A DNA stretch of 56,713 nucleotides from Defluviitaleaceae bacterium (GTDB lineage: Bacteria > Bacillota > Clostridia > Lachnospirales > WRAX01): contig WQZZ01000001.1 of NCBI GenBank assembly GCA_009780485.1, forward strand, positions 1 to 56,713, read 5' to 3'. The position numbers were made by a program, and so were the translations under genes. Positions 7,080 through 38,368 of the stretch are shown in pieces. The stretch's first letter is position 1. Every line of letters starts with the position of its first letter. The notes under the pieces are model-generated. The model had not been told where the DNA came from. It searched no databases and saw only the letters and a program-made list of their open reading frames with translations.

Positions 7080-7152
7080 TTCGGATTGATGTGTTATATG
7101 TATTTACCGAAATTAGTATAAAAAAGGGCGACCTATTGTCGCCCTTTTATTG

Positions 7153-7335: not shown

Positions 7336-7552
7336 GGGCATCGCTCCTTTCTTATACCCTTTTTGTCAATAAGTGCTTGACAAGAAGACCTAAGATAGGG
7401 TACAATGTCCCTTAGGTCCTGTTTGGGGTCTGACGTGGTGCTTGCCTGGTTTCATTTGCGATGGATTAGGCAAGCACCGATTTACAGTACCCCGTTGGAA
7501 GAAATATATTAGAACTGTTTCCAGTATACGACAAAATTCTGTGGATGTCAAG
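7336..7552 (-). promoter_or_regulatory. long structured 5' leader of the AbrB-like gene (module copy A) with its promoter TTGACA-17-TATACT
   Basis: Minus-strand -35 is the reverse complement of 7546..7551; -10 is the reverse complement of 7523..7528. Nested hairpin: 7425-7432/7485-7493 and 7437-7447/7468-7478. Second hairpin: 7387-7394/7411-7418. Conserved box TTGTCAAGCA. Confidence 0.55.
7377..7406 (+). promoter_or_regulatory. antisense promoter TTGACA-18-TACAAT embedded in leader copy A
   Basis: The -10 lies in the loop of the GACCTAAG/CTTAGGTC hairpin. Geometry is the same in copies B and D. Confidence 0.55.
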
Positions 7553-7570
7553 AGTTTTTTGCAAAAAAAT

Positions 7571-7600
7571 ATAGGGTGGGGGCTTTTGCCCTCACCCTAT
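7571..7600 (+). terminator. GC-rich hairpin ATAGGGTGGGGGC-TTTT-GCCCTCACCCTAT
   Basis: Inverted repeat seen directly. Likely ends the plus-strand antisense RNA of module A. The U-tract is weak. Confidence 0.45.
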
Positions 7601-7610
7601 AATTGTTTAG

Positions 7611-7639
7611 TTGACAATTGGCGAATTTTGGTGTATAAT
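7611..7639 (+). promoter_or_regulatory. consensus promoter TTGACA-17-TATAAT for the small-peptide transcript
   Basis: Perfect hexamers at 7611..7616 and 7634..7639. Confidence 0.65.
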
Positions 7640-7695
7640 CACAATTGCGTACTTGGAGGCAGGCTTTGACGCCCTTTTGGAAAGGGGGTTAGCCT

Positions 7696-7809
7696 ATGTG
7701 GATTTGTGAAGTATTCAATCTGATATTTCTTGGCATTGTGGCATTTGTCACACTTGCCGATTACATAGACAGAAAGAAGAAAAGCAAACGCCGCCCTCCC
7801 GACAAGTGA
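7696..7809 (+). CDS. 37-aa hydrophobic peptide with basic tail (type I toxin-like candidate)
   Basis: MWICEVFNLIFLGIVAFVTLADYIDRKKKSKRRPPDK. AAAGGGGG RBS 7 nt upstream, own consensus promoter, and a terminator overlapping the 3' end. Confidence 0.45.
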   Translation: MWICEVFNLIFLGIVAFVTLADYIDRKKKSKRRPPDK

Positions 7810-7905
7810 TAGCGGCGTTTTGATTAAAGTTTTATCTTAATACCCGCAAAGCCTGCCGACTGTGCGTACTGAAGGGATGTTGTGGAAGATATCCCTTCTT
7901 TTATT
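7780..7905 (-). ncRNA. candidate about 125-nt antisense RNA convergent with the small-peptide ORF
   Basis: Starts after the minus-strand TTGACA-17-TATAAT promoter and ends at the 7786..7821 hairpin. Overlaps the last roughly 25-30 nt of the ORF. Contains the hairpin GAAGGGAT/ATCCCTTC. Confidence 0.45.
7786..7821. terminator. bidirectional hairpin AACGCCGC / GCGGCGTT
   Basis: 8-bp GC-rich stem. TTTTGATT follows on the plus strand and TGCTTTTCTTC on the minus strand. Confidence 0.6.
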
Positions 7906-7911
7906 GTTACC

Positions 7912-7940
7912 ATTATATCATCTTTCACCTACTTTGTCAA
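7912..7940 (-). promoter_or_regulatory. consensus promoter TTGACA-17-TATAAT on the minus strand
   Basis: Reverse complement of 7905..7945 reads gTTGACAaagtaggtgaaagatgaTATAATggtaac. Confidence 0.65.
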
Positions 7941-7955
7941 CACAAAAGTTGACTA

Positions 7956-7984
7956 TTGACGAAATTATGTATAGGGGATATAAT
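7956..7984 (+). promoter_or_regulatory. TTGACG-17-TATAAT promoter of pdp
   Basis: Hexamers at 7956..7961 and 7979..7984. RBS GAGGATGCAGGTGA precedes the ATG at 8011. Confidence 0.55.
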
Positions 7985-8010
7985 TAAGGCAAGAGGATGC
8001 AGGTGATGAT

Positions 8011-11017: not shown

Positions 11018-11060
11018 GGGCGAGCATTGCTCGTCCCAGTCCGATAAACGATGCCACATA
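11011..11060. repeat. REP-like element, opposite orientation (GGTAGGGGCGAGCATTGCTCGTCCC)
   Basis: Core at 11013..11037, with a flank related to that of 13789..13806. Confidence 0.85.
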
Positions 11061-11083
11061 TCCGTGGCAAATAAGGAGAAGAA

Positions 11084-11944
11084 ATGAGATTAGACGACTT
11101 ATTTTGTAATATGAGAGCTGGCATGATTTATGAAAGCCTAGATTTACAAAAACTAATAACGGAGGTAGGTGCTAAGCGTTTAGTTGAAGCAATGCTAGAC
11201 AATATTGGCAACACCAATTCACTAATAAGAGAAAATATTCTCGGCATCAACTATCGACTTGCTGTTGAAGGACTTTTAGAACACAAAGATTACATTGATA
11301 TACTAAACACCTGCTTAGGAATGGACTATTTGTTCAAAAACATCAACGACCCAGACTGCGATGACGCAGTGTTTTGCCGTGCATACGCTTCGCTTGCCAT
11401 TGGTTGGATTGTACACGCAGATGCAAAAATGGAATTTTTATCGGAAAGCCAGTACAAGCAAGCATTGGAAACCACCATCCTATATATGATGCAAGAAACC
11501 GACCGCAAGGGCTATGTCTTAGGTAAAGGTTGGGTACACGCAATTGCACATGGTGCAACCATGCTTCGAGAAATGATAAACCATCCCAAATTCCCTATGG
11601 AATATGCCGAAAAAATTCTGGATTGCATTAAGTTCCACATTGCATCACAGCACCCTTTCACGGATGGGGAGGAGCATAGATTTGCAAGTCTCGTTTTAAT
11701 ATTAATGGACAAAGGCATCACCGAACAGCAAACCAAAGACTGGATGGGTAATTTAGCACCAAAAATAAAGGCGGCTCATTTTACGGATGAACACGCAAGC
11801 GAAATACGGTTATGGCGTAATGTGGAGTATTTTTTGCGGTCGCTTGTTAGCGTGCTTGCTGTCGACACTAGGCACGACAGTCTTATGAGAGATACAGCCC
11901 AATATGTATCAAAAATATGGTCGATAGCCCAGTCAAATGATTAG
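11084..11944 (+). CDS. hypothetical helical-repeat protein (possibly DUF2785-like)
   Basis: 286-aa ORF with AAGGAG RBS. Only a weak recollection of the GW.H..AHGA pattern, so no firm family assignment. Confidence 0.5.
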   Translation: MRLDDLFCNMRAGMIYESLDLQKLITEVGAKRLVEAMLDNIGNTNSLIRENILGINYRLAVEGLLEHKDYIDILNTCLGMDYLFKNINDPDCDDAVFCRAYASLAIGWIVHADAKMEFLSESQYKQALETTILYMMQETDRKGYVLGKGWVHAIAHGATMLREMINHPKFPMEYAEKILDCIKFHIASQHPFTDGEEHRFASLVLILMDKGITEQQTKDWMGNLAPKIKAAHFTDEHASEIRLWRNVEYFLRSLVSVLAVDTRHDSLMRDTAQYVSKIWSIAQSND

Positions 11945-11974
11945 GGGTAATCAGTATATGAGGAGGAAGGAATT

Positions 11975-13186
11975 ATGAAAAGAAAAATTTTAGGAACATT
12001 ATTGGCTCTATGTGGTTTGGTATTAGTTGCTTGCAATGGAGAACAACAAGTGGACGATACCCGCCCATATCAAGGTCAAGAAACCACTGACACTAATCAA
12101 CAACAAACAACCGAATATCCAGAAACTTTGGAAATCAGTATCAACATTGCGGACGATGCCATTTTGGCAGGCTTTAACCAACAACACCGCTACAATTACA
12201 GCAACTGGGAAAGTGTAACCATTGCAATCTGGGCAAACCAGCCAATGCGTAACCTTGCCGTTGTAAGTCTGTCCAGCCATTGGGATGAAGAACGCCAGCA
12301 GCTGCTTTACTCCCCCACAGCACGGCGTGGTGAAACACCCATGCTTGCCGTAGGTGACGGTTTTGTCATAAAAAATTACGTGGGTGCTGGCACGCTTCCT
12401 GTTAGCGGAATTGCTTTTACCGACATTAACGGCAACATCCGCCATTTTGCCATGCAGGAAAACAACGCATACCCCAACCACGGCGGTATGTATGTAATAT
12501 GGGAAATTGAAGTGATTGATTGGCAGCAGGCAGCGGACACACTTATAAACAGCATGGACAGCATCTTCACAGAGGTTTTGTGGATGTGGGGCAATGATGG
12601 TACAGCAGAAATCAACTTCCGCCCAAGCGAACAGATGGCAGGCTTCTACAACAGCCAAGGCAACCGCTTTGATGATAGCTTGCCTTGGATTTACAGGTTT
12701 CAAGACAGCTTTTACTTTGCTGACTATTATAAAATAATCGACCTTGACCGTGACGGCATACCAGAAATTCTAATCCACTTCCACCAAACCTTTGAAGGTT
12801 GTTACGGAGGATTTTACCGTATATTTTCCTACAGAAACGGTAGATATGAAATGCTAGAAATGTCCGCATATGGCGACGGTTGGTTGCATTTCGGAAGCGG
12901 CCACCAATTGTTTGTGGATGGATACGGCAGAACAATTGCCCTAATAGACAGCGAACTGTCAGGGATGGAATACACACAGCTAGTAATTGAGGGTAACCGT
13001 GCCACGTTTTACCCCCTTGCACTGCCAGAATGGACCCAAGAACAGTGGAGGGAGCATCATTGGCAAGTGTGGAGCCAAGAAACTTGGGAATTGCTGGATA
13101 GCTGGCTAGACCACAACCCAACAATCTTTGGTACAGACATTCCTCTAACACCTATACAACCATGGCAAGGCAGGGACTTGCCTTAA
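11975..13186 (+). CDS. lipoprotein of unknown function
   Basis: Signal peptide with lipobox LVAC. AGGAGGAAGG RBS. The C-terminal half has an IDLDRDGIPEILIHF FG-GAP-like motif. Confidence 0.7.
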   Translation: MKRKILGTLLALCGLVLVACNGEQQVDDTRPYQGQETTDTNQQQTTEYPETLEISINIADDAILAGFNQQHRYNYSNWESVTIAIWANQPMRNLAVVSLSSHWDEERQQLLYSPTARRGETPMLAVGDGFVIKNYVGAGTLPVSGIAFTDINGNIRHFAMQENNAYPNHGGMYVIWEIEVIDWQQAADTLINSMDSIFTEVLWMWGNDGTAEINFRPSEQMAGFYNSQGNRFDDSLPWIYRFQDSFYFADYYKIIDLDRDGIPEILIHFHQTFEGCYGGFYRIFSYRNGRYEMLEMSAYGDGWLHFGSGHQLFVDGYGRTIALIDSELSGMEYTQLVIEGNRATFYPLALPEWTQEQWREHHWQVWSQETWELLDSWLDHNPTIFGTDIPLTPIQPWQGRDLP

Positions 13187-26759: not shown

Positions 26760-26838
26760 GTTTATCCTCCACCCTTGTTTGCGATTTCACTTACGTATAT
26801 TATAACCCCCGCCCACAAATCCGTCAACAACTTTCTTC

Positions 26839-27038
26839 TTGACAAGCAAGCTGTGTGAAGGTATAATATACACAATCCCGCAAATTCTGCGGGTTGGCAA
26901 AAAGATACACGCTGGACGGTCAAGACTTCCAATCAAAGCCCGTCCAGCGTGTTCCAAAAGCCAAAAGGCTCAGTGATAATCTTACATTACTGAAGCCTCT
27001 TTTGTCAAGCCCTTATAAGGGCAGAGGGAGGATTTTTT
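26839..27038 (+). promoter_or_regulatory. TTGACA-17-TATAAT promoter plus about 165-nt leader with three hairpins, the third a terminator-like attenuator
   Basis: Hairpins at 26877..26893, at 26907-26919/26940-26952, and at 26966-26977/26986-26998 followed by CTTTTGTC. Then GCCCTTATAAGGGC and a GGGAGG RBS. Confidence 0.5.
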
Positions 27039-27737
27039 ATGCAGAAATTTCTGAAAAGACTTCAAGTCAAAGGTTTTGTGACAGGCGTACTAGTAACCAT
27101 ACTGCTTTCGGGAACAATGTTGGCTATGGCAAACCAAGGCGGTACAATACGAGAATTGTTTTATGGCGTAAACATTGTAGTGAATGGTCGCCCTTTACAA
27201 ACAGAGGGTATCGACCGCCCCTTTATAATGGATGGTAGGACGTTTTTGCCTGTTCGTGTTGTTTCTGAGGCTCTTAATGTGCCTGTGGAATGGGATGGCT
27301 CTACAATGACGGTGTATGTCGGAACAGGTACAACAGGAAGACCATTATTTGAAACCACACCAACTGCTTCAAGTCAGAATATAACAACCGCATCGGGAAC
27401 TATGTCAGACAGGTCATTTAATACCGTATTTAGGACATCAAGCTTTAACGCAGGTCAGAGTACAACAGGGTGGGGCGAATTTAATCTAAATGGACAATTT
27501 AGCTCCATTTCTGGAGTTCTGGGTCGCCTAAACAATGCGGCAGGCACTTCAAATATTGTCTTTATTGGTGATGGAATAGAAATAGTTAGATTTGCAGTAG
27601 ATGGAACAACTGTGGCACATGACATTTCTGTTGATGTGAGCGGGGTTCTAGTTCTCAGGATTGAAATTTTACAAGACATGGTAAACTTCGGAACACAAAG
27701 GTCTCAAGTAGGTTTTGCAAGCCCCATGTTGCACTAG
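27039..27737 (+). CDS. secreted/anchored protein: copper-amine-oxidase N-terminal-like (stalk) domain plus NPCBM-like C-terminal domain
   Basis: N-terminal TM/signal segment. VNGRPL...PFIMDGRTFLPVRVVSEALN..VEWD motif. C-terminal pattern F.L.G.F..ISG..G......V.F.GDG. Confidence 0.6.
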   Translation: MQKFLKRLQVKGFVTGVLVTILLSGTMLAMANQGGTIRELFYGVNIVVNGRPLQTEGIDRPFIMDGRTFLPVRVVSEALNVPVEWDGSTMTVYVGTGTTGRPLFETTPTASSQNITTASGTMSDRSFNTVFRTSSFNAGQSTTGWGEFNLNGQFSSISGVLGRLNNAAGTSNIVFIGDGIEIVRFAVDGTTVAHDISVDVSGVLVLRIEILQDMVNFGTQRSQVGFASPMLH

Positions 27738-27811
27738 CCTTGAATAGAGGGGAATGTCAAAAATAAAACAGAGCATCATGGTAGATACCTCACAATGATG
27801 CTCTGTTTTAT

Positions 27812-28030
27812 TCATTTTCGTTTAACTTGGTTGTAAATCTCGCTTTTAGCCACTCCCCTCTCTTTAGCGACAAGTTTCATGGCATCTTTTTCGCCACATC
27901 CTTGATTGATGAAGCTTTCAATATGTTCTTGCACATTTTCTGGATAGAAGATGCTTCGTTCCCTTATGCCTTCGACAATAATCACAAATTCCCTACGAGG
28001 GACGTTGTTTGCATAGCTGTCTAGGATAAG
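27812..28030 (-). pseudogene. orphan 3' fragment of an rsmI paralogue (last about 72 codons, no start)
   Basis: Translates to ...ILDSYANNVPRREFVIIVEG..PENVQEHI..EKDAMKLVAKERGVAKSEIYNQVKRK-stop. 50 of 73 residues match the C-terminus of rsmI at 37544..37762 in my hand alignment. Confidence 0.75.
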
Positions 28031-28031
28031 G

Positions 28032-28304
28032 TTAAAGTGGAGTTTGTATCGATTTTACTGGTTGATATACATATCGCCCATTTTCCATCAATCGAGAGTA
28101 AAGTCCTACTTCCCCCAACTGGGCATCAAGCAATAAAGTCATAGCTGGTTGGATTTCCTTTGGTTTGATGCGTAGGCAAAGTCCACACCCAGCACTTATT
28201 TGGGATGGAAGGGGCAAAACACCTACTTGTAGCTTTTGTGCAATCAAGGTTTTTTCGGCTTTCATAGCAAAGCTGGTGCTTGTAAATGTGATTATATATT
28301 CCAT
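28032..28304 (-). CDS. DUF3343 (putative Se/S carrier-like) protein
   Basis: 90 aa. F.ST..A.KAEK.L pattern and AGCGLC. GGAGTGA RBS inside the upstream gene's end. Confidence 0.7.
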   Translation of the reverse strand: MEYIITFTSTSFAMKAEKTLIAQKLQVGVLPLPSQISAGCGLCLRIKPKEIQPAMTLLLDAQLGEVGLYSRLMENGRYVYQPVKSIQTPL

Positions 28305-28308
28305 GGGT

Positions 28309-29406
28309 TCACTCCGATAATTTCAAAATTTCTTTTATGGCATCAACGGTTCGCACCACTTCATCCAACGTGTTGAAATAGGAAAATGAGAAGCGTACCA
28401 TGCCCCTGTCAATTGTGTCCAATTGTTTGTGGAGCAACGGAGCGCAATGACCGCCTGCACGGGTCACTATTCCATAACCTTCCCAAAGTCGCTCAGCAAG
28501 GTCGGTAGAGGTAAGATTGCTGATATTTAGGGATATAATAGGCAAACGGTCGCTTGCACTCATATCGCCATAAAATTGAATTTGTTCCAAGTGTTGGATG
28601 CCGTTGTAAAACATTTGTGCAAGTGCGGTTTCGTGCTGATGTATTTTGTCAACTCCAATTCGATTTACGAATTGTACACCTTTTTGCAAACCGTATATTC
28701 CGTGGCTGTTGGGTGTGCCAACCTCAAAAAAGTCAGGCATCATCTTTGTTTGGTATGTGGCAAAAGTATTAACGCCTGCCCCACCAGTTTTAACAATATC
28801 AAAGTCAAAATTACCACACGTAATTATGCCACCAGTACCCTGTGGTCCAAAAAGCCCTTTGTGACCTGTAAAGCAAAAAATATCAGCCATATCCATGCTT
28901 ACTGGTATTGTGCCGAAAGTCTGGGCGATGTCCAAAATCATGGTGATGCCCTTAGCTTGACAGTTTTGGTGCAAACTAACCGCATCCACAATATCACCTG
29001 TCAGATTTGAGCCGTGGGTACAGACCAAAAATTTTGTTCCGACCTTAAAATCGGGGTTGTGGGGGTCAATAAAATATAGGTCGCAACCTGACAAATACAG
29101 AGGACGCAGAACCGAGTTATGCTCCCATACCGTGGTTGCCACCACATCCCCTTGCTTTATCAGACCACCAATTACAAGATTTAGGCTTTCCGTGGCAGAT
29201 GATGTGAAAGCTACAGACAAAGGGTCATCTGCCCCGATAAGACCAGCAACTTCTGCCCTTGTGTTATAGATTTCACGGCTGGCGAGAAGGCTCGGTTCAG
29301 AAAAACCTCGGCTAGGGTTGCCAAAGTTTTTCAGAGCAAAAGTCACTGCTTCTGCCACTTCTGGGGGTTTTGTTAATGTTGTGCTTGCATTGTCAAGGTA
29401 TATCAT
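28309..29406 (-). CDS. class-V aminotransferase-fold cysteine desulfurase / selenocysteine-lyase-like enzyme
   Basis: PLP-lysine context FTGHKGLFGPQGTGG. Active-site loop RAGGHCAPL. ATGA overlap with the upstream gene. Confidence 0.85.
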   Translation of the reverse strand: MIYLDNASTTLTKPPEVAEAVTFALKNFGNPSRGFSEPSLLASREIYNTRAEVAGLIGADDPLSVAFTSSATESLNLVIGGLIKQGDVVATTVWEHNSVLRPLYLSGCDLYFIDPHNPDFKVGTKFLVCTHGSNLTGDIVDAVSLHQNCQAKGITMILDIAQTFGTIPVSMDMADIFCFTGHKGLFGPQGTGGIITCGNFDFDIVKTGGAGVNTFATYQTKMMPDFFEVGTPNSHGIYGLQKGVQFVNRIGVDKIHQHETALAQMFYNGIQHLEQIQFYGDMSASDRLPIISLNISNLTSTDLAERLWEGYGIVTRAGGHCAPLLHKQLDTIDRGMVRFSFSYFNTLDEVVRTVDAIKEILKLSE

Positions 29407-29735
29407 AGTGTTATAACCTGGTCAACACCCGCCGAACCAAGGGCGGCATAAAGGTTGGGGAAACAACCGATACCAGCACCGTCTATAAGGTTGGACTGTA
29501 TGCCACGTTCTATAGCACAAAGGTCGCAAGTCATCAGCAAAGTTCCGTACTTTTCATGGACTTGTTGCAACCCCTTGCCTGTGGTGGTTTCGGGGGTCAG
29601 TAAAAACGCATTGTCAAAGAAAAACATCATCCCCACCACCTCCACACCATGGTTGCCCGACAACATCTGAGGGATTATCATTTTATCTAAAATTTTCTGG
29701 CTTCCGTTTGACGAAAAAATATATGCAACTTTCAA
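29403..29735 (-). CDS. DsrE/DsrF-like sulfur-relay family protein
   Basis: 110 aa. TTG start 7 nt after AAGGAG. Rossmann-like small fold pattern with CDLC. Confidence 0.6.
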   Translation of the reverse strand: MKVAYIFSSNGSQKILDKMIIPQMLSGNHGVEVVGMMFFFDNAFLLTPETTTGKGLQQVHEKYGTLLMTCDLCAIERGIQSNLIDGAGIGCFPNLYAALGSAGVDQVITL

Positions 29736-29739
29736 TTTA

Positions 29740-30504
29740 TCACTCCTTGCTGTAATTGAACGCCTTACGCAAAAGGTCGGTCAGGTCGTTGTTGTAGGTC
29801 TTAAACTGGTCGCTACTTCTGTCCCTTGGGCGGGGCAGGTCGATTTTTACATCAGCCAACAATTCCCCGCCATTTGACTGCATCACCAGCACACGGTCGC
29901 TTAAAAACACCGCCTCTGAAACGTCATGTGTAACCATCATCACCGTTGTTCCTGCTTTTTGGACGAGGCTGGCAAGCTCGTTCTGCAAAATTTCTCGCAT
30001 TTGAAAATCCACAGCCCCCAGCGGTTCGTCCAGTAGCAAAATCCGTGGGTGACTTGCTAAGGCACGCAAAACCGCCACCCTCTGTTGCATTCCGCCAGAC
30101 AACTGAATGGGAAATTTCTTCTCATGCCCAGTTAGATAAGCCATTTCTAGAAGCTCCTTTAAGCGGACATCCCTTTGCTCCTTGGGCATACCCTGCATCC
30201 GCAGAGAATACGTAATATTGCGTCCAACATTCATCCACGGAAACAGGGCGTAATTTTGGAAAACATAGCCCCGCTCCACACTTGGCCCATCAATTTCTAC
30301 GTCATCAAGGGCAATTAACCCATCCGTGGTTTGCTGAAAACCTCCAACCATGGACAACATGGTGGTCTTGCCACAACCAGATGGGCCAATTAAGCTGACA
30401 AATTCCCCTTCCTCAATTTCTGCGGAAAAACCTTTGATAACCACATGGTCAACCTCTTTTTTATTAGGAAAAACCTTGCGTACATTATTAATTTTCAGCG
30501 GCAT
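29740..30504 (-). CDS. ABC transporter ATP-binding protein (NitT/TauT nitrate-sulfonate-taurine type)
   Basis: Walker A GPSGCGKTT, signature LSGGMQQR, Walker B ILLLDEP. Confidence 0.9.
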   Translation of the reverse strand: MPLKINNVRKVFPNKKEVDHVVIKGFSAEIEEGEFVSLIGPSGCGKTTMLSMVGGFQQTTDGLIALDDVEIDGPSVERGYVFQNYALFPWMNVGRNITYSLRMQGMPKEQRDVRLKELLEMAYLTGHEKKFPIQLSGGMQQRVAVLRALASHPRILLLDEPLGAVDFQMREILQNELASLVQKAGTTVMMVTHDVSEAVFLSDRVLVMQSNGGELLADVKIDLPRPRDRSSDQFKTYNNDLTDLLRKAFNYSKE

Positions 30505-31279
30505 CCTTAAACCTCCAACTGGTCAAACTTCTTTCAACCAAAAGCAAAATCCTGTCGATAAAATAGCCTGTCACAGCCGCCATTATCATCAGCGACCATA
30601 GGTCTGCTGTGCGAAATTGTATTTGTGCTTGTATCAATAGAAACCCAAAGCCAGAGCTAGTTGCAATAAATTCTGCACAAATAACGCTCATCCAGCCCAG
30701 TCCCACAGCCATGCGTAATCCTGTTAGAAAGCTGGGGAAAGCTCCTGGTAAAATGATTGTGACAAAGATTTTAAGGGTAGATGCACCCATGGATTTGGCG
30801 GCACTTATGTAGTTCGGGTCAATATTCATAACGCCAGACAAGGTATTTATCATCAGAGGGAAAACTGCTGACATAAAGATGATAAACAGTGTGGGCCCTT
30901 CACCTAAGCCAAACCAGAGTATTGCCATAGGCACCCATGCCATGATGGGTATTTGGCGGATTGAATTCATAAGTGGCGATATGGCTTGCCTTATGGTTTT
31001 GGAATATCCCATGAACATCCCAAGTGGCAAGCCAATCAAGGAAGCATATCCTACTCCACGAAGCACCCGCCAGAGGGTTATGCCAAGGTTTTCCATTACC
31101 CAACTATTTGTCCAATTGGTGAAAAACGCCTGCATGGTGGTGACAAAATTAGGAAGCCTTATGGCTTGGTCTATGTGCAGGGAAGCAAAATGCCACACCA
31201 CAAATGCCACTGCCAGACCTCCGAAAAACATTAACGTACCCTTGGAAGGCTTGGGAAATTTACGTAAAATTCTTTCCAC
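30488..31279 (-). CDS. ABC transporter permease (NitT/TauT type)
   Basis: EAA-like loop AAKSMGAS..KIF..IILP. GTG at 31279 after GAGGAG. An alternative ATG at 31231 forms a TAATG overlap with the upstream stop. Confidence 0.8.
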   Translation of the reverse strand: MERILRKFPKPSKGTLMFFGGLAVAFVVWHFASLHIDQAIRLPNFVTTMQAFFTNWTNSWVMENLGITLWRVLRGVGYASLIGLPLGMFMGYSKTIRQAISPLMNSIRQIPIMAWVPMAILWFGLGEGPTLFIIFMSAVFPLMINTLSGVMNIDPNYISAAKSMGASTLKIFVTIILPGAFPSFLTGLRMAVGLGWMSVICAEFIATSSGFGFLLIQAQIQFRTADLWSLMIMAAVTGYFIDRILLLVERSLTSWRFKDAAEN

Positions 31280-31962
31280 TTCGCCAGCTCCTCTCCTTGT
31301 ATCAATTGGTTAAAATTTTCAATAAAATCTGCAAACTGCTGTGTGTACACCACATCTTGATGAACCAACAAAACGCTGGACGGGCGGTTATAAGGCAACG
31401 GGCGTATTATCAAGCCAGCATCCTCGACGGCGTTTGTGGCGGTTAAAACATCTAACACAACTGCATCCACCGCCCCTCGTGCCAAAGCATAAGGCAAAGC
31501 CAATGTATTCATCGGCACAAACGCCACATCTTGTCCCAAATTAGCTTGAGCAATTTGATGTTGTGATGACCTACCGAAGGTATAGCCCACGCTAGAGGGT
31601 ACATTGTATGTAATTGACACCAAAACACTGGAATTTTCTACAATGCTACCCCACAACACAAAGGGGCGGTTTCCACCCTGCAAAAACAACTCTGCCGCAT
31701 CAGGGCAAATGACAGCAATGTCAAAAACCCCAGCTTCTAAAGCCATTTCTGCTTGTGTTCCACAACAATCTGCCAACCTAATTCCTTGTACATCATCCGT
31801 CGCACCTGCGGCTTGATTTACTAGAAGTCCCGCCAAATCATTAGTTGACACTATTCGCAAAACATCCCCACCGTCACCGCCACGGGTTGCCAAAAATACG
31901 ATAATGGCAACCACGGTAACGGCAATGATGGTGGAAAATACCTTATCTTTGTTGGCTTTCAT
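31231..31962 (-). CDS. membrane-anchored half-size substrate-binding-like protein with Cys-Cys motif
   Basis: N-terminal TM anchor. LADCCGTQAEMALEAGVFDIAV. Position between an SBP gene and the permease gene. Confidence 0.5.
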   Translation of the reverse strand: MKANKDKVFSTIIAVTVVAIIVFLATRGGDGGDVLRIVSTNDLAGLLVNQAAGATDDVQGIRLADCCGTQAEMALEAGVFDIAVICPDAAELFLQGGNRPFVLWGSIVENSSVLVSITYNVPSSVGYTFGRSSQHQIAQANLGQDVAFVPMNTLALPYALARGAVDAVVLDVLTATNAVEDAGLIIRPLPYNRPSSVLLVHQDVVYTQQFADFIENFNQLIQGEELAKWKEFYVNFPSLPRVR

Positions 31963-31964
31963 TA

Positions 31965-33152
31965 TTACTCTACAATGCCATCAACATAGACAGCCATTGC
32001 ACGCCAATCCTCAAAGCTCATCCCTAGCGGGAAAACAGGGTCAACACGGTCACGGATAAAGGTGTTAAAATCGCCCGCCCCACTGTTGTTAAAAAACCTT
32101 AAGTCTATGTAATCTTCCACATTGGCATCGTTAATATCAGGTCTAAGCCCCATATATGCCAGCGTGTTAATTTGGTTTTGGAAGTACTGCACATTCAAAT
32201 CCCAGCTAATGGTACGCCCTTCGTAATTTAGTTTACGCCACATGGTAATAAGCCCTACTTCCAACGGCACAACAAAAGCGTGGGAGAAGATTTCCGCCGC
32301 ACGGTACGGGAACATATACATAAATTCGATGGCGATGGTGTGTGCAAGCAACATTCTTTCTGCAAGCTCTGGATGTTCCTCACCAAATCCAGTCCGCATA
32401 ACCACTTTACAACAAGTGCCGTGACCCAATCCACGGTCAGTACGGTCGGTATCGTTGCGAATCATAATCCAGCCAGTACCTCTATATTCGGCATAGGAAG
32501 CCCACGGGTCGCAGGTGATGAAAGCATCAAGCTCGCCAGCTTGAAAGGCGAAATGGGCATCAGTTTGTGCCATAATGTTAAGGTTGTAATATTCCAAAGC
32601 TGTGGGAAGCCCCAAAATAGTCAACATTTCTACCCAGTTTAGGAAATTTAGCGGGTCAGCGTTGTTGGTGGCAATTCTCGCACCAATCAAATCTTCTGGG
32701 GTTTGTATGTGGTTGGCAACAACCAAATATTCCGCCCCACCAATGTGATTTTCAGCCACCACAATAATCGGCGAGCCAGCACGGCGGGAAGCAAACACAA
32801 GTCGATGGTCAACCAATCCAATATCCACATGACCGCCTGCCATAGCCTCTGGCACACCGCCGTGACCTGTCATGCTTACCGTCAAGTCTAAATGCTCAAA
32901 AATACCAGCATAGTATGCGGTTGGTGCGGCCGTCATATGGTCACAGTTAAAGTAACCAAGACGCACTTCAATTCCCTGAAGTTCTGCTGGTAGTGGCGGA
33001 ATTTCCCTGCCGTCAAGTATGATTGCGATACGTTCCGCATCGGTCAATGTCCCTGTCTGCTCCACAGCCACAACATCATCTCCGCTACATGCCACAAACA
33101 TAGTCATAGCAAGCAATACAGCCAAAAATAGACTTAAAACCCTCTTTTTCAT
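31965..33152 (-). CDS. ABC substrate-binding lipoprotein (NMT1/SsuA-like) with Cys-Cys motif
   Basis: Start trimmed to MKKRVLSLFLAVLLAMTMFVAC (lipobox), after GGAGGAAAAC. GHGTCCKVV motif. Confidence 0.72.
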   Translation of the reverse strand: MKKRVLSLFLAVLLAMTMFVACSGDDVVAVEQTGTLTDAERIAIILDGREIPPLPAELQGIEVRLGYFNCDHMTAAPTAYYAGIFEHLDLTVSMTGHGGVPEAMAGGHVDIGLVDHRLVFASRRAGSPIIVVAENHIGGAEYLVVANHIQTPEDLIGARIATNNADPLNFLNWVEMLTILGLPTALEYYNLNIMAQTDAHFAFQAGELDAFITCDPWASYAEYRGTGWIMIRNDTDRTDRGLGHGTCCKVVMRTGFGEEHPELAERMLLAHTIAIEFMYMFPYRAAEIFSHAFVVPLEVGLITMWRKLNYEGRTISWDLNVQYFQNQINTLAYMGLRPDINDANVEDYIDLRFFNNSGAGDFNTFIRDRVDPVFPLGMSFEDWRAMAVYVDGIVE

Positions 33153-33175
33153 AATGTTTTCCTCCATTTTTTTGT

Positions 33176-33610
33176 TTAACAACATCCGTCTAATCCACCA
33201 AACAAATCTACCCATTGGTTGTCATAAAACCGCAAAATGCCTAGCCCGAAATTTATGCCCCGCCGTCCAGAAATCATTAATTCATTAGGGGGTTGGTCGT
33301 TGATGTTTATAAATTCCATATCCACATCTTGGAAGGGGGCTGGCATTGGCTCTGTTAGCTTGAAACCGTTTGGGGTTGAAAATACAGTAACTTTGTGGTT
33401 GTGTTCGGGGTCTGCCCTAAAAACCACCACCAAATCATCAATGCCATCGTCATTGGCATCTCCTTCAATCATCAGTACAATCTGCTGGTTGGGAAACTCC
33501 GCACGGAAATACGGCAAAAGGTCGCTTTCGATAAGGTCGGGGTAGTCATCTGTGACACCACAACCTGCCAAAACTAGCAAAAGTAACGCTCCAAGCAAAA
33601 ACCGCATCAT
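33176..33610 (-). CDS. small lipoprotein ending in Cys-Cys-COOH
   Basis: Start trimmed to MMRFLLGALLLLVLAGC, after GAGGGAGGG. Last codons are GGA TGT TGT TAA. DANDDGIDDLVVVF motif. Confidence 0.6.
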   Translation of the reverse strand: MMRFLLGALLLLVLAGCGVTDDYPDLIESDLLPYFRAEFPNQQIVLMIEGDANDDGIDDLVVVFRADPEHNHKVTVFSTPNGFKLTEPMPAPFQDVDMEFININDQPPNELMISGRRGINFGLGILRFYDNQWVDLFGGLDGCC

Positions 33611-34674
33611 TTTGCCTCCCTCCCTCGGATTTTGCGTCGTGTCCACATTATCCACGAATACAAACCCAAAACCATAATCAGACCAGCGGCAAACACCCTG
33701 AACCATTCGGGAAAGAATATTGTAAAGTTTTCCGCTAAACTTATGGCTTGTTGTGTGCCTGTCATGTCAAATCTTGGCATAAAATTGTCGGCAAAAAAGA
33801 AGTTTACAATCCAACCCAAGAAAATACCGTAAGCCACCACGATACCTGTGTAAATCAGCACCGCACGTCGCCCAATCATTTTCCAAATACTTATCATTTC
33901 AGGCAGGTTGGTTACCACGCCTACCAACAGGAAGGTGACGGCAATGCCAGGGGCTGTGCCAACACTAACAAGTGCCGCAATGAATGGGATATGTCCCGTT
34001 GCACACACATACATTAACGCCCCAAGCAAGGTGACACCAACCAGCGACATCATATCTGGGCTGGCAAGGTATTGCTGGATAAAGGACAGGGGCAAGACGG
34101 CAAAGATTAGGGCAGCAAAGGCTGTACCTAGTAGGATAAAGCGACTGGTTTGCACAGCAAGGTCGGCAAACCCCCATTTTAGCCCGCCTGCCAAACGCTT
34201 AAATAACGGCGGTTTAGCGGTGGCAAGCTTGACCAAGGCTTCTTGTACAGCGTGGGGAGATTTAACTAAATCCCCACCAAAGCGATTGGCGACCAGCCCA
34301 ATTATTATAGGCAACACAAAACCGCTAATCAGGTAAATTGTAGCGATTTCTGCACCAAGCAATGTGAAAGCCAAAATCAAGGCGGCGGGGTTGATGATGG
34401 GGGCAGCTACCAAAAACGCAAGCGTTGGCCCTAAATTTGCACCAGAACGATGCAAGCCAATGGTTAGGGGCATAACGCCACATGAGCAAATTGGAAGCAA
34501 CGCCCCAGAAACTGTCGCCTTGACAATGCTAGAAAATTTACTATTCCCAAGCGATTTTTGCAGACGCTCTGGACGTAAAACCCCATATAACAAGCCACAG
34601 ATGGCGAAGCTAACCACCAGCCATGGACCACTCATCCTAATCATTTCCCAGAAAAATTGGGGAAATTCATTCAT
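33607..34674 (-). CDS. PF03773-type (ArsP/YraQ-like) permease with CSC motif
   Basis: Two-fold repeat membrane protein. SGALLPICSCGVMPL is typical of this permease family. ATGA overlap with the upstream gene. Confidence 0.78.
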   Translation of the reverse strand: MNEFPQFFWEMIRMSGPWLVVSFAICGLLYGVLRPERLQKSLGNSKFSSIVKATVSGALLPICSCGVMPLTIGLHRSGANLGPTLAFLVAAPIINPAALILAFTLLGAEIATIYLISGFVLPIIIGLVANRFGGDLVKSPHAVQEALVKLATAKPPLFKRLAGGLKWGFADLAVQTSRFILLGTAFAALIFAVLPLSFIQQYLASPDMMSLVGVTLLGALMYVCATGHIPFIAALVSVGTAPGIAVTFLLVGVVTNLPEMISIWKMIGRRAVLIYTGIVVAYGIFLGWIVNFFFADNFMPRFDMTGTQQAISLAENFTIFFPEWFRVFAAGLIMVLGLYSWIMWTRRKIRGREAK

Positions 34675-34931
34675 AATGCAAACCCTATGGCTTTACTAAC
34701 AACCTTAGCCATTTTTTTGCGATTCAAATCCTCATGTTTCTCACTTTCGTTGATAATCAATGTGCCACGTAAGATTTGACCATATTTTTCTAGATAGTTA
34801 AAATCTTTACCAGCGTTGTAGATGGTAATATCTACTTTGTCAGCATGATTTTCTGCCACTTCCCGCAGAAAATTTTCATTGCCGTCACAGCACGGGCAGG
34901 TGTTGATAAATTCGATTTTTGTCTTAACCAT
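34671..34931 (-). CDS. small thioredoxin-fold protein with CPCC motif
   Basis: 86 aa. Begins KIEFINTCPCCDG. AAGGAG RBS. Immediately upstream of the permease, as in the permease plus redox-active-disulfide-protein pairs I recall. Confidence 0.62.
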   Translation of the reverse strand: MVKTKIEFINTCPCCDGNENFLREVAENHADKVDITIYNAGKDFNYLEKYGQILRGTLIINESEKHEDLNRKKMAKVVSKAIGFAL

Positions 34932-35694
34932 TTTTAATCTCCTTGATACAAGCCCCTATTGCCCCTGCAAATTGGGCATTGGGGTCAGTTTTAACATCAA
35001 ATCCTGTGGTTTTTGCGATTGCAGTTACCAGCATATTAGAGCGAGCCAACCCACCCGTCATAAGTAGGGACTTTGTGCCATCAAAGCCTATTTTGGCAGT
35101 CATCTGATGCACCCGTTGTGCTATGGATTGTAGCACTCCCGCTAAAATTTTGCCACGGTCAATTTGGGCGGCAAGACTGCTGATAATCTCGGTTTCTGCA
35201 AAAACAGTACATATACTGGTAACATGGCTAGCTTCTGTGGGGTGGGCAAAATTATCAACTTCATCCAGTTTAATGCCTAACACATCACAAGCCATGGTTA
35301 GGAAACGACCTGTTCCAGCAGCACATTTATCATTCATCAAAAAGTCTGCTGGTTTTCCACTTTCCAATCTAATAACCTTACTGTCCTGCCCACCAATATC
35401 AATGACACCGCCAATATTAGGGATAAGAAATTCCGCCCCCAAAGCATGACAGGTAATTTCCGTATATGTTTTATCCGCAAAAGTTATGGCATCCCTTCCA
35501 TAGCCAGTAGCTACAACCCTAACATCTTCACGCCTAAGCTCATTAGTTGCGAATAGAGCATCCAGAGCTGACTGTGCAGAAATCATAGGGTTCCATCCAG
35601 TTTTTTCTATGTGAAGCTTCTCTATGTAGCCGTTCTTAAAAAGCACTGCTTTACACATGGTGGAACCAGAGTCGATGCCGACAACCCAACACAT
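34924..35694 (-). CDS. BcrAD/BadFG-family ATPase (acyl-CoA dehydratase activase-type electron-transfer ATPase)
   Basis: VVGIDSGSTMCKAV, DIGGQDSKV and CAAGTGRFL motifs. TAATG overlap with the upstream gene. Confidence 0.88.
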   Translation of the reverse strand: MCWVVGIDSGSTMCKAVLFKNGYIEKLHIEKTGWNPMISAQSALDALFATNELRREDVRVVATGYGRDAITFADKTYTEITCHALGAEFLIPNIGGVIDIGGQDSKVIRLESGKPADFLMNDKCAAGTGRFLTMACDVLGIKLDEVDNFAHPTEASHVTSICTVFAETEIISSLAAQIDRGKILAGVLQSIAQRVHQMTAKIGFDGTKSLLMTGGLARSNMLVTAIAKTTGFDVKTDPNAQFAGAIGACIKEIKNG

Positions 35695-36845
35695 TACATC
35701 ATCTCCAAAAATGCCGCAAGCCTTGTTTTTAGCTGTGCTGTATCGGATGTGGAATAATCCGTTTCCACGCTGATAAATGGAACGTCATGGGATTGCATCA
35801 ATTTGCGTATTTCCACCGTTTCAATTGCATATGTATGACAAGCGGTTAGCACCATTTCGACCACGCCGTCCACCTTAAAATCCTTACAAAGCTGGGTAAG
35901 AAGGTCGTAGCGGTTGGTGTTTGGTGACATGACAGAGCATCCGATTTGCAAGTATCTGTCCGCAATCGCCCTGTAAGGCTCGGCATTTTCGTCGATATTT
36001 AGTGCAACAGGTTTGTAGCCAATACAGTTTTCGTACACCACCACAACGCCACCGCTTTCCTCGATAGCCTTGACCACCTTTTCCGTAACGCCAGCCAGCG
36101 GGCAACCCGTCACAAGGATACGTTTAGCGTTTTCTGGCACGTTGCGGACACCATTATCATAATCCATCTTGACTTTATCAATCATCTGACGCAATTCTTT
36201 GTTTTTTTCTTCCAAGTCAAATTTGAAAAGTTGCCCATAATTTAGTTTTAACTGCTCTGACCCCATAATGGGCGGTGGATTCAGCATACTAAGTTCTGCA
36301 AATTCTTTAAGCAAACTACGGGTTTCGTTTTTGATTTTAATAGCGGATTTAATGGCTTCATCAGTAATTGTCACGCCAAAGTCTGCTTCAACACGCTCTT
36401 TTAACCGTAGAACCTCTTTATACCACAGCTCTTGAGAAGCTTCGTCAAACTGACTTTGAGGTAACTGCATCACATGGACATTCTTAATTTCGCCCATAAG
36501 TTCGTACATCTTCTTTTTTCCATCACAAGTGGTTTCGCCAACCACCAAATCAGCAAAATAAAGGTATGGACATTTGTCCGTCACCGCAAAGCCATAACTA
36601 GATTTTATGAGAGGGCATAGGTTGCGGGGCAACACTTTCTCTGCTTCTGCAATGGTTTCATCGCTAAATGCACAAATACCCACAGGCACAGCCCCCGCCG
36701 CAATGAAAATTTCTTCTGGGGTATAGGTGCAATACATTCCGACTACCTTTTTGCCTGCATCTTTTAATTTCTTAATATCCAAAAACCCTTGTTTACGGGC
36801 GTCAGCAAAGCCATCAAAATCAACTGGTAAAGCATTATCGTTCAT
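35694..36845 (-). CDS. 2-hydroxyacyl-CoA-dehydratase-family protein, single subunit (double-cubane-cluster reductase-like)
   Basis: Start trimmed to the ATG at 36845, after CGGAGG. About 383 aa, at least 10 Cys. Only one dehydratase-family subunit is paired with an activase. Confidence 0.75.
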   Translation of the reverse strand: MNDNALPVDFDGFADARKQGFLDIKKLKDAGKKVVGMYCTYTPEEIFIAAGAVPVGICAFSDETIAEAEKVLPRNLCPLIKSSYGFAVTDKCPYLYFADLVVGETTCDGKKKMYELMGEIKNVHVMQLPQSQFDEASQELWYKEVLRLKERVEADFGVTITDEAIKSAIKIKNETRSLLKEFAELSMLNPPPIMGSEQLKLNYGQLFKFDLEEKNKELRQMIDKVKMDYDNGVRNVPENAKRILVTGCPLAGVTEKVVKAIEESGGVVVVYENCIGYKPVALNIDENAEPYRAIADRYLQIGCSVMSPNTNRYDLLTQLCKDFKVDGVVEMVLTACHTYAIETVEIRKLMQSHDVPFISVETDYSTSDTAQLKTRLAAFLEMM

Positions 36846-37041
36846 ATGTAACCTCCGACATTTTTTGATTAAATTATGCCACAAGTATCATAAATTTTCT
36901 AATATCAATTATTAATGAATTTTATGAATATTATCAAAATATCTAATAAACAGTAAATTGTTTATAAAATCGTTGTAAGATTTGTTGCCATATGATAAAA
37001 TCAATTTTATTCATAAAACGACTTTGAAAAGAGGTGCGACT

Positions 37042-37257
37042 ATGAAAGATAGCACAATGATGATATGTTACTGCTCAAATGTCACAAAAAATGAAATTCT
37101 TATTGCTATTAGTAATGGAGCAACAACCATGGATGACATACGTAGCAAAACAAATGCCTGCACCCTCGGTCTTTGTGAAGAGTTTAACCCAGAAAAGAGA
37201 TGCTGCTCCCCTGAAATAATTACAATCCTTAAAGAAGCCCGTGAAATAAATCCATAG
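37042..37257 (+). CDS. BFD-like [2Fe-2S]-binding-domain protein with extra Cys-Cys
   Basis: 71 aa, from the ATG after AAGAGGTG. ICYCSNVT...ACTLGLCE pattern plus KRCCSPE. TTGTAA-17-TAAAAT promoter at 36973..37001. Confidence 0.6.
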   Translation: MKDSTMMICYCSNVTKNEILIAISNGATTMDDIRSKTNACTLGLCEEFNPEKRCCSPEIITILKEAREINP

Positions 37258-37543
37258 CCAATATTTGTTGAAAATTAGGACACTGATAAATGCGTCATAT
37301 CGACTTTTATATTACATTACGAACTAATTCAAAAAAATGTACAATCAAAAATCCCCTGCGTTGAACAACGGAGGGGATTTTGTTACATATTATGGGTTTC
37401 TACTATAAGGTTTTGAGACCAAGAACCCCATTACCACTAATAAACATAGTGGTAATGGGGGGACTATATATTTAACAGTTTAACTTAGTTAGATTATCAA
37501 AAAACAACACCATTGTTAACCCGACTAACATTGGTGTTGTTTT

Positions 37544-38368
37544 TTATTTACGTTTGACTTGATTATAGATTTCACTTTTTGACACTCCCCGCTCTTTGGC
37601 AGCAAGCTTTATAGCATCTTTTTCACTATGTCCTTGTCCCATAAAACCATTAATATGTTCTTGCACATTTTCAGGAAAATCGACAACTTGCTCAACTGCA
37701 CCTTCCACAATAATCACAAATTCCCCACGAGGGGCGGTGTCCGTGTAGCTATCTAGGATTTGGGTGAATGTTCCACGTGAAACATTCTCAAATTTTTTGG
37801 TAAGCTCTCTCACAATGGCGACTTTTCTATCACCAAGCATATCCCGCATTTCGGTAAGTACAGTTATTAGGCGGTGAGGGGCTTCATAAAACACCATTGT
37901 GCGATGCTCCGTGACAAGTCCTCCCAAAATCCTTTTGCGGTCAGATTTGTCACGGGGCAAGAAGCCTTCAAAAACATGGGGGTGTATGGTGAAGCCAGAC
38001 AACACAAGGGCAGACAGTCCCGCAGTTGCCCCAGGGCAAATGGTAACGGTTATGTCCTCGTCATGGCAGGTCTGTATCAATTCCCGCCCAGGGTCAGAAA
38101 TGCCAGGCATACCAGAATCGCTCACCAAAGCAATCTTTGCACCACCCCGCAACCGCTCTATCAGTTGCTTTCCCTTTGTTTCCTTGTTGTTTTCATGGTA
38201 GCTGGTTGTCGGGGTTTTGATTTCGTAATGATGCAAAAGTTTAGCCGTGTGTCGTGTGTCCTCGGCAGCAATCAAATCCACTTCGCCAAGTACACGCAAC
38301 ACACGCAAGGTAATATCCTCCAAATTCCCAATGGGTGTGGCACAAATATACAAAATTCCGTCAACCAT
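37544..38368 (-). CDS. rsmI: 16S rRNA (cytidine1402-2'-O)-methyltransferase
   Basis: LYICATPIGNLEDIT.R, the tetrapyrrole-methylase fold, and a C-terminal KERGVSKSEIYN tail. Confidence 0.92.
   Translation of the reverse strand: MVDGILYICATPIGNLEDITLRVLRVLGEVDLIAAEDTRHTAKLLHHYEIKTPTTSYHENNKETKGKQLIERLRGGAKIALVSDSGMPGISDPGRELIQTCHDEDITVTICPGATAGLSALVLSGFTIHPHVFEGFLPRDKSDRKRILGGLVTEHRTMVFYEAPHRLITVLTEMRDMLGDRKVAIVRELTKKFENVSRGTFTQILDSYTDTAPRGEFVIIVEGAVEQVVDFPENVQEHINGFMGQGHSEKDAIKLAAKERGVSKSEIYNQVKRK

Follow-up and report, generated by a model that had tools for sequence, protein, structure and literature searches.

The 56.7-kb Defluviitaleaceae contig analysed here (a single contig, hereafter the window) carries on its minus strand, between positions 36845 and 28032, what is almost certainly a complete copy of the published SAO (Selenocysteine-Assisted Organometallic) system, with its genes in the order saoT-E-C-X-B-P-A-D. 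The copy is an all-cysteine form devoid of the MerB-like lyase SaoL, and its sao genes are nested in one operon, with a double-cubane [8Fe-9S]-type reductase (DCCP) and its activase on the 5′ side, and a SclA-like pyridoxal phosphate (PLP) lyase and a DUF3343 protein on the 3′ side. All twelve genes fit within one 8.8-kb operon. Taken as a whole, the explanation proposed below, which combines the identity with SAO, a relay mechanism and a reading that leans towards selenium, is likely to be the best one.

The SAO families (NF040727-NF040736) were defined by Haft and Gwadz (bioRxiv 10.1101/2022.07.06.499078; J Bacteriol 2023), who found the nine-gene locus in 52 of 15,511 representative genomes. 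Their work already covers the recurrent Cys-Cys or Cys-selenocysteine pairs (CC/CU), the two substrate-binding proteins (SBPs), the permease gated by selenocysteine (Sec), the ArsP-like exporter and the link to double-cubane proteins, which lie at most 5 kb from SAO in 40% of the loci. It also reports that SaoL is present in 45 of the 52 loci, that Sec occurs in 85% of SaoP and 60% of SaoB, that all SAO species use Sec, and that 955 of 970 double-cubane proteins belong to SelD genomes (bioRxiv 10.1101/2022.07.06.499078). An earlier note on this DNA, made from the letters alone, had proposed a family for each product, including Sao names, and all of these guesses were confirmed by Pfam and NCBIfam hidden Markov model searches. 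Its implication that the system was undescribed did not hold: SAO itself, the CC/CU theme, the two SBPs, the ArsP-like exporter and the double-cubane link are all published and in NCBIfam, so that the note had rediscovered a known system. The cluster is a convenient experimental version of that system, not a new one. The note's remark that its chemistry is not described agrees with a 2026 review (PMC13188914), which counts SAO among the functionally unresolved systems.

Seven Sao models (SaoT, SaoE, SaoC, SaoX, SaoB, SaoP and SaoD) scored above their equivalog cut-offs (Table 1). SaoA, whose best NCBIfam match is just below the cut-off of the corresponding model, lies in the canonical gene position and is 85% identical to the SaoA of a syntenic locus, L164. 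Comparisons were carried out with 80 genome loci anchored on SaoX (designated, like the other loci compared, by L numbers), in which all components were mapped by tblastn, and with a complete-locus subset of 39 related loci flanked on both sides by 3 kb or more, a set that is biased toward relatives of the all-cysteine query. The one-strand order T-E-C-X-(L)-B-P-A-D is present in the window and in most of the 80 loci. As in the system of Haft and Gwadz, eight of the nine families are found in canonical order, the CC, CSC and CxCC motifs stand at equal positions, and there are two SBPs per one permease and one ATPase. Also as published, a double-cubane protein of family NF040772, a feature of SAO membership, is adjacent with its activase, and is in the same operon. 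The window copy differs in having neither SaoL nor Sec anywhere, in the placement of its sao genes between DCCP-activase and lyase/DUF3343, and in the clear signs of insertion at its locus, where the defining paper saw no such signs. Regarding SaoL, a tblastn search of the window with the SaoL of L023 gave a best E value of 1.5, and no open reading frame (ORF) of the window matches a MerB-type model.

The twelve minus-strand ORFs running from 36845 to 28032 and the plus-strand BFD-like ORF at 36982-37257 were confirmed at these coordinates. As the earlier note had proposed, the twelve read as one operon-like unit with start/stop overlaps, and the BFD-like gene diverges from the same AT-rich intergenic region. 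The DCCP and activase genes overlap by 1 nt (TAATG at 35694), activase and saoT by 8 nt, saoT and saoE by 4 nt (ATGA, 34671-34674), and saoE and saoC by 4 nt if SaoC begins at the ATG at 33610, which is preceded by a ribosome-binding site. The saoC/saoX junction depends on the start of SaoX: the longest ORF overlaps saoC by 40 nt, and a start at the lipoprotein signal MKKRVL (33152) leaves 23 nt between the two genes. Further downstream, saoX and saoB are 2 nt apart, saoP and saoA overlap by 17 nt, saoA and saoD are separated by 4 nt, saoD and the lyase (desulfurase) gene overlap by 4 nt (ATGA, 29403-29406), and a 4-nt gap precedes the DUF3343 gene. The sole strong intrinsic terminator was found 3′ of the cluster, at about 27758-27811, and is likely to end the operon transcript; a consensus scan inside the cluster gave weak terminator-like matches only. 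A promoter-like site, TTGATA-18-AATAAT, which matches the consensus only, is placed on the minus strand at 36937-36908, and about 78 nt 5′ of the DCCP gene align with L164. At gathering thresholds, Rfam matched no family anywhere in the window; only sub-threshold noise came from the leader and intergenic regions, and there is therefore no riboswitch clue to the ligand. The cluster 28032-36845 probably works as a single functional unit.

Vicinal cysteines recur in products of this operon that are unrelated to each other. Every motif quoted in the earlier note was found: GTCCK in SaoX, DCCGT in SaoB, a C-terminal CC in SaoC, CPCC in SaoT and RCCSP in the BFD-like protein, and, in addition, CSC in SaoE and CxxC in SaoD and DUF3343. 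This recurrence is more than chance, as the CC dipeptide is present in 5 of the 13 cluster proteins versus 2 of the 39 other window proteins (Fisher p = 0.008), and as the cluster proteins contain five such dipeptides for 0.95 expected from their own cysteine frequency. The positions are conserved over the 80 loci. SaoX residues C91, C235, C268 and C269 are invariant in 17 homologues and its CC is retained in 79 loci out of 80, the CSC of SaoE and the CxxC plus C of SaoD are invariant wherever these proteins were detected, and the terminal CC of SaoC is conserved. In DUF3343, C40 is conserved in all detected homologues, but C43 is not.

The earlier note had also surmised that one cysteine of the pair would be Sec in orthologues, and in-frame TGA codons were indeed found in four components. 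CC becomes CU in the SaoB of 8 loci, the single gate cysteine of SaoP is encoded by TGA in about 30, SaoT orthologues alternate between CxCC, UxxC and CxUC, and SaoC ends with CU in one locus, L076. In the window copy, all relevant codons are TGT or TGC, and the SAO feature of at least one selenoprotein component is absent. Nor does the window contain selD, selA or selB, as already noticed from the letters, or a tRNA-Sec gene; it has no tRNA gene of any kind. Among the 39 complete loci, SaoL is present in 21; 18 have no SaoL nearby, 20 have no Sec codon and 10 have neither. The cysteine-only, SaoL-less state is a common form, and given that 20 of the 39 complete relatives are all-cysteine loci, Sec is not defining for SAO membership.

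A variant of SaoL was seen in a Peptococcaceae locus (L023:11211-11855), where CCCC is present at the place at which most SaoL show CU. This SaoL coexists with a lyase, DUF3343 and YedF located 3′ of the DCCP.

The first two genes of the operon encode, as the earlier note had recognised, a single-subunit protein of the double-cubane type and its activase. The DCCP aligns over its full length with PDB 6ENO (255 bits), and C39, C58, C77, C107, C274, C303 and C336 all align to 6ENO cysteines, i.e. 7 out of the 7 motif cysteines, which comprise six cluster ligands plus one nearby cysteine (PMC7317905). A literal regular-expression search for the published seven-cysteine motif failed, owing to the spacing convention and to an indel of 3 residues and not to absent ligands, as judged from the 6ENO alignment. 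It is the only PF06050 gene in the cluster and in the whole window, its stop codon is overlapped by the activase gene, and no second subunit of the HgdA/HgdB type was found in the window. The protein shares with the Carboxydothermus hydrogenoformans DCCP/DCCP-R couple (PDB 6ENO, 7YYL) the fold family, the motif cysteines and the association of a single subunit with an adjacent archerase-type ATPase. It differs by its length of 383 aa, as it lacks the N-terminal extension of about 37 residues that narrows the substrate channel, and resembles in this short form E. coli YjiM (class II in PMC7317905). It is predicted to bind an [8Fe-9S] cluster and to carry out ATP-dependent reductions. Its identity with the DCCPs of L164, L167 and L172 is 71-88%, against 36-57% with those beside other SAO loci; an extra cysteine at position 248 is conserved in its subfamily. 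A DCCP was found near SAO in about 38 of the 80 loci, versus none in a control set of 80 loci anchored on rsmI (776 kb).

At the other end of the operon, the PLP lyase has the catalytic cysteine loop RAGGHCAPL and a PLP-lysine motif, GHK; it is a close outlier of the TIGR01977 and SclA models, below the cut-offs of both (Table 1). Ten contexts of close homologues (58-74% identity) were sampled. DUF3343 was the next gene in 9 of the 10 and a YedF-type protein was adjacent in 7. In 5 of them selD was adjacent, including one DUF3343::SelD fusion and one case beside selA-selB, which agrees with the selenium link that the earlier note had attributed to the pair. In three contexts the lyase came directly after DCCP-activase, and two of these three, L167:4055-7394 (Desulfitobacterium dichloroeliminans, CP003344.1) and L172:4043-7402, are DCCP-activase-SclA-like lyase-DUF3343 operons without sao genes. 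The DCCPs encoded there show 71-73% identity with the window DCCP and share the extra Cys 248. Since L167 and L172 carry the same unit without sao, DCCP-activase-lyase-DUF3343 is a conserved four-gene unit, inside which the eight sao genes sit in the window and in L164. Other SAO loci have lyase, DUF3343, YedF or SelD in differing orders (L023, L040, L041, L045, L048, L083), and none of these genes was present in the control set.

The desulfurase, DUF3343 and the BFD-like protein are not mentioned by Haft and Gwadz (bioRxiv 10.1101/2022.07.06.499078). DUF3343 and Sec lyase have been proposed as selenium-trafficking proteins by Lin et al. (2015, PMC5322559), in whose study an HGD-dehydratase subunit and its activase are listed, without comment, among the STRING partners of YedF and DUF3343. 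Compared to the SclA-DUF3343-SelD-YedF set (PMC5322559; Enterococcus faecalis SclA, bioRxiv 2020.02.07.939272), the window lyase and DUF3343 are, respectively, 58-74% and 41-73% identical to members of pairs placed directly upstream of selD and yedF, whereas the window pair comes after saoD, and neither selD nor yedF occurs in the window. The operon fusions constitute physical-linkage evidence that points the same way, towards a double-cubane/selenium association. The possibility that the lyase/DUF3343 pair replaces SaoL was rejected, as L023, L004 and L014 carry both.

Some proteins related to this set were encountered on the way. A 436-aa gene at L168:7269-8579 fuses DUF3343 (PF11823) to SelD (AIRS/AIRS_C), and adjoins a lyase homologue and an operon of the xanthine-dehydrogenase family. 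Stand-alone proteins of 112-114 aa, encoded 3′ of the lyase or of DUF3343 (L164:9361-9699 and L165:9064-9408), match the DsrE-like C-terminal half of YedF, with its CGTC motif, and are weakly similar to SaoD (E about 1e-3 to 1e-5). SaoD of the window itself weakly resembles the DsrE-like C-terminal domain of YedF.

The operon lies in inserted DNA. A segment of 10.8 kb (26760-37543) separates rsmI from purL in the window, where the two closest rsmI relatives, L084 and L085 (trmN-rsmI then purL), have 17 bp. Within a few nt of the DUF3343 stop begins a duplicate of the final 73 codons of rsmI, which has its own terminator; relative to the intact 3′ end, 32 of its 73 codons are identical, 19 differ synonymously and 22 non-synonymously. 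This fragment marks the edge of the inserted DNA. It is unlikely to be a duplicate that decayed in situ, because 73 codons in frame with 19 synonymous against 22 non-synonymous differences point to the ends of two genes, each shaped by selection in a lineage of its own. A classical integrative element was also considered, but neither integrase nor transposase was found in the window. In L164, which comes from a second Defluviitaleaceae metagenome-assembled genome, the same 12-gene order (47-91% aa identity) is placed between mnmA and valS, and in L174 a 10-gene version without the lyase/DUF3343 pair adjoins ispF and cdaA. From the rsmI duplicate and the three differing insertion sites, we conclude that the cassette moves horizontally, whereas Haft and Gwadz (bioRxiv 10.1101/2022.07.06.499078) reported no sign of horizontal transfer.

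Identities between the window and L164 were uneven along the operon. They amount to 88.5% for DCCP, 84% for SaoT, 85% for SaoE and for SaoA and 91% for SaoD, the activase being within this 77-91% group, to 69-74% for SaoC, the lyase and DUF3343, and to 47%, 56% and 60% for SaoX, SaoB and SaoP, respectively (30488-33215 compared to L164:4271-6922). The window SaoX is 75% identical to that of L001, and identities with L174 are even (57-75%). The SaoX-B-P segment, which presumably contacts the substrate, is mosaic, and looks as if it had been exchanged by recombination. The closest SaoX relative, L001:9606-13446 (also L002 and L003), is a minimal locus, in which saoX-B-P-A are accompanied only by a BFD-like gene in divergent orientation, and neither saoT, E, C or D nor a DCCP lies within 8-10 kb; the BFD-like homologue of these loci is 52% identical to that of the window, has the CC conserved and is divergent to saoX. 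A tblastn search of PLSDB plasmids with SaoX gave no match. Elsewhere, the SAO locus of Cetobacterium sp. SF1 (L078) is on a 190-kb plasmid (p1), and a transposase-like ORF, DDE-type in sequence, is located between saoX and saoB in Desulfopila sp. IMCC35008 (L077:~11000-12200).

A relay based on thiolate exchange would be the most economical model for such a set of proteins. Outside the cell, SaoC (CC-COOH), SaoX (with a four-cysteine cleft) and the anchored SaoB (CC plus C) would catch a thiophilic ligand by thiolate exchange, and the ligand would then be passed to a SaoP2/SaoA2 importer, whose gate would be a pair of cysteines. Once in the cytoplasm, it would be kept as a thiol adduct by SaoT (CPCC) and SaoD (CxxC plus C). 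The activase would spend ATP to drive low-potential electrons into DCCP, which may reduce the ligand or a compound made with the ligand. SaoE (CSC) would export surplus ligand or product, and the SclA-like lyase together with DUF3343 may supply or accept persulfide or perselenide.

What such a relay would carry is a separate matter. We tentatively favour, at a little less than an even chance, a selenium-centred chemistry, in which selenium would itself be carried by the relay or would enter into the double-cubane chemistry as an ingredient. That selenium was the most likely element, as the earlier note put it, differs from the published organometallic, Hg-like view, and the contexts described above support it circumstantially. 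Selenium is favoured here because no carbon-metal bond lyase is present and because close homologues of the genes fused to the operon feed SelD. A narrower version, which we regard as rather doubtful, is that this DCCP subfamily is selenium-dependent, with selenium coming from the dedicated SclA-like lyase and DUF3343 (for a selenide-bridged cluster or a selenium-bound substrate), and that SAO serves the acquisition and processing of selenium, or of a chalcogen, and not of organomercurials. If so, the cysteine-only operon of the window would be a minimal, heterologously expressible form of the pathway.

Several points weigh against selenium. The window copy has no Sec, and the 56.7 kb have none of selD, selA and selB. 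Most of the 80 SAO loci have no lyase/DUF3343 pair within 10 kb, and the DCCP-sao operon of L174 is also without it, so that the pair is accessory; furthermore, the position of the lyase below the TIGR01977 and SclA cut-offs leaves a preference for selenium over sulfur unproven, and DUF3343 occurs also in SelD-lacking organisms (PMC5322559). The similarity of SaoL to organomercurial lyase, and of SaoE to exporters of organoarsenicals and of Cu/Zn, would fit a metal or metalloid better than selenium. A selenium import system that needs Sec in most species would be circular. Finally, the mechanistic steps laid out above are all inferred for the SAO components.

In the published model, an organometallic or heavy metal (Hg-like, possibly As) is imported with Cys/Sec pairs as metal ligands, the metal is catalytic in fermentative energy metabolism with double-cubane reductases, and SaoE is a metal efflux pump; the lyase/DUF3343 pair would then be incidental housekeeping of sulfur or selenium. 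We lean towards the selenium link in preference to this idea, which we hold to be somewhat unlikely for the present operon, even though the SAO families, the CC/CU motifs and the DCCP co-occurrence were defined on such reasoning. Its other supports are the MerB-like nature of SaoL, together with the presence of this protein in more than half of the complete related loci, and the membership of SaoE in PF03773, which relates it to the SO_0444 Cu/Zn efflux pumps. The fold and the CSC motif, which lies in a transmembrane helix, are common to SaoE, the latter pumps and ArsP, but SaoE belongs to a separate equivalog family, NF040736, and the SO_0444 model gave 187 bits for a cut-off of 300. Vicinal cysteine pairs are, moreover, classic ligands of soft metals, e.g. 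the C-terminal CC of MerA and Cys12-Cys13 of ArsD. The mer operon (MerP/MerT for uptake, MerB lyase, MerA reductase) follows the same logic, as a thiophilic species is passed between cysteine pairs from the outside to a cytoplasmic reductase, and as MerA ends with a vicinal CC, but homology is limited to SaoL, a protein that the window lacks, uptake in the window is by an ABC importer with SBPs, and the reductase is ATP-driven and based on iron-sulfur instead of being a flavoenzyme. Since the window, L164 and L174 operons all lack SaoL, these operons cannot have lysis of a carbon-metal bond as their core step. The window shows no mer or ars gene in the vicinity, the recurrent operon-level fusion with selenium-mobilisation genes is left unexplained, and Haft and Gwadz themselves call the metal unknown.

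Alternatively, the SclA-like lyase, DUF3343, SaoD and the BFD-like protein may build or repair the double-cubane cluster, with its bridging sulfide or a selenide analogue, and the sao transporter may separately import the substrate of the reductase. Such a maturation role of the pair overlaps with the selenium reading, and is consistent with the DCCP-activase-lyase-DUF3343 operons devoid of sao (L167, L172), with the position of the lyase beside DCCP or activase in 4 of the 5 SaoX-anchored loci that have it, with the STRING partners listed by Lin et al. (2015, PMC5322559), and with the Se-bridged cluster that Haft and Gwadz raise as a formal possibility (bioRxiv 10.1101/2022.07.06.499078). We nevertheless consider it unlikely: the C. 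hydrogenoformans DCCP needs no such helpers to assemble an [8Fe-9S] cluster when made in E. coli (PMC7317905), and L174, like most SAO-adjacent DCCPs, does without the pair. It could also be that the sao transporter, the DCCP reductase and a selenium-recycling pair are independent modules, merely co-travelling on a mobile cassette, as the inserted DNA, the three differing chromosomal sites, the variable content (BFD plus XBPA only in L001, no lyase pair in L174) and the mosaic X-B-P segment might indicate. This is made quite improbable by the nesting of sao between the halves of a four-gene module conserved elsewhere and by the repeated, independent assembly of the same three modules in other orders and in unrelated lineages (Peptococcaceae L023, Lachnospiraceae L040, Dehalococcoidia L083); start/stop overlaps also join the modules, and DCCP is frequent near SAO and absent from the control loci. 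Last, and very improbable, is an uptake of organosulfur compounds of the sulfonate/taurine type with a sulfur relay for sulfur assimilation. SaoX, SaoP and SaoA are closest, outside SAO, to the SsuA/SsuC/TauB families, and the DsrE-like, thioredoxin-like and desulfurase proteins have sulfur-relay folds, but scores with Ssu and Tau models are far below the cut-offs. According to Haft and Gwadz (bioRxiv 10.1101/2022.07.06.499078), cysteine-lined binding sites and Sec substitutions are unknown in sulfonate transporters, and the system is strictly tied to Sec-using anaerobes.

SAO and the double-cubane reductases count among the more puzzling systems found in anaerobes, C. difficile and C. botulinum among them. 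As no gene of the window operon requires Sec insertion, a standard host could express the whole pathway for tests of binding, import and reduction. The fusion of DCCP-activase with an enzyme of the Sec-lyase type and DUF3343, which is found outside SAO as well, provides a testable lead on why double-cubane proteins track selD. Beyond the defining paper, the window brings the nesting with lyase/DUF3343, the insertion between rsmI and purL and the mosaic SaoX-B-P segment, and horizontal movement of the cassette is a point that was not observed there.

Table 1. Features of the SAO operon and of its borders in the window, with the model scores or other evidence for each.
Feature	Position	Strand	Evidence
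Double-cubane [8Fe-9S]-type reductase (DCCP), short 383-aa form	35694..36845	-	NF040772 526.6 bits (cut-off 350), PF06050
ATP-dependent activase (archerase, DCCP-R type)	34924..35694	-	TIGR00241 247 bits (cut-off 125), PF01869
SaoT, thioredoxin-like, CPCC	34671..34931	-	NF040730 112.3 bits (cut-off 65)
SaoE, permease of the ArsP/SO_0444 family, CSC motif	33607..34674	-	NF040736 432.5 bits (cut-off 325), PF03773
SaoC, lipoprotein ending with Cys-Cys-COOH, lipobox LAGC	33176..33610	-	NF040734 108.4 bits (cut-off 80); 100% identity with a protein from a Defluviitaleaceae metagenome-assembled genome
SaoX, lipoprotein SBP of SsuA/NMT1 type, GTCCK; likely start 33152 or 33185	31965..33215	-	NF040735 384.9 bits (cut-off 300)
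SaoB, membrane-anchored SBP, DCCGT plus C86	31231..31962	-	NF040727 164.6 bits (cut-off 140)
SaoP, ABC permease, single cysteine C201 at gating position	30488..31279	-	NF040733 333.4 bits (cut-off 295)
SaoA, ABC ATPase	29740..30504	-	Best NCBIfam match NF040729, 353.9 bits, 6 below cut-off 360
SaoD, DsrE-related, CxxC plus one further cysteine	29403..29735	-	NF040732 171.2 bits (cut-off 169)
SclA/EF2568-like PLP lyase (cysteine desulfurase / selenocysteine lyase family), RAGGHCAPL	28309..29406	-	TIGR01977 337 bits (cut-off 377), NF040779 SclA 274 bits (cut-off 525)
DUF3343 (PF11823), putative Se/S carrier	28032..28304	-	PF11823 70 bits (cut-off 25)
BFD-like [2Fe-2S] protein, extra CC, divergent; likely start 37042	36982..37257	+	PF04324 32.4 bits (cut-off 26)
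AT-rich divergent promoter region (putative)	36846..37041	.	Consensus-only promoter-like match inside
Partial duplicate of rsmI 3′ end, 73 codons, in frame	27812..28030	-	81% nt column identity to 37544-37762
Intrinsic terminator 3′ of rsmI fragment	27758..27811	-	Hairpin then T-run, dG -27.7 kcal/mol, z = -7.9

The BFD-like protein was also compared to NF045877 (Csac_0668 2Fe-2S (seleno)protein). It reached 40.8 bits for a cut-off of 190, over the C-terminal 60 profile positions only, and, lacking the full-length architecture with a CopZ-type N-terminal part, it is not a member of that family. SaoC was modelled with AlphaFold2 on an alignment of 7 sequences, with a poor result (mean pLDDT 58.6, pTM 0.50).

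The remaining genes of the window are the housekeeping set of a spore-former. About 1 kb (6991-8010) is free of ORFs of 110 aa or more on both strands, and Rfam gave no match there at gathering thresholds. The inserted DNA holds, in the part between purL and the rsmI fragment, a 232-aa ORF (27039-27737, plus strand) that has no NCBIfam match and is not found at the rsmI-purL junction of relatives. On the opposite side, the spacer between rsmI and the BFD-like gene (37258-37543) has a sub-threshold Rfam match to the Bacillus sRNA ncr1575 (39 bits for a threshold of 60), and contains three successive strong hairpins, which are probably stacked terminators.

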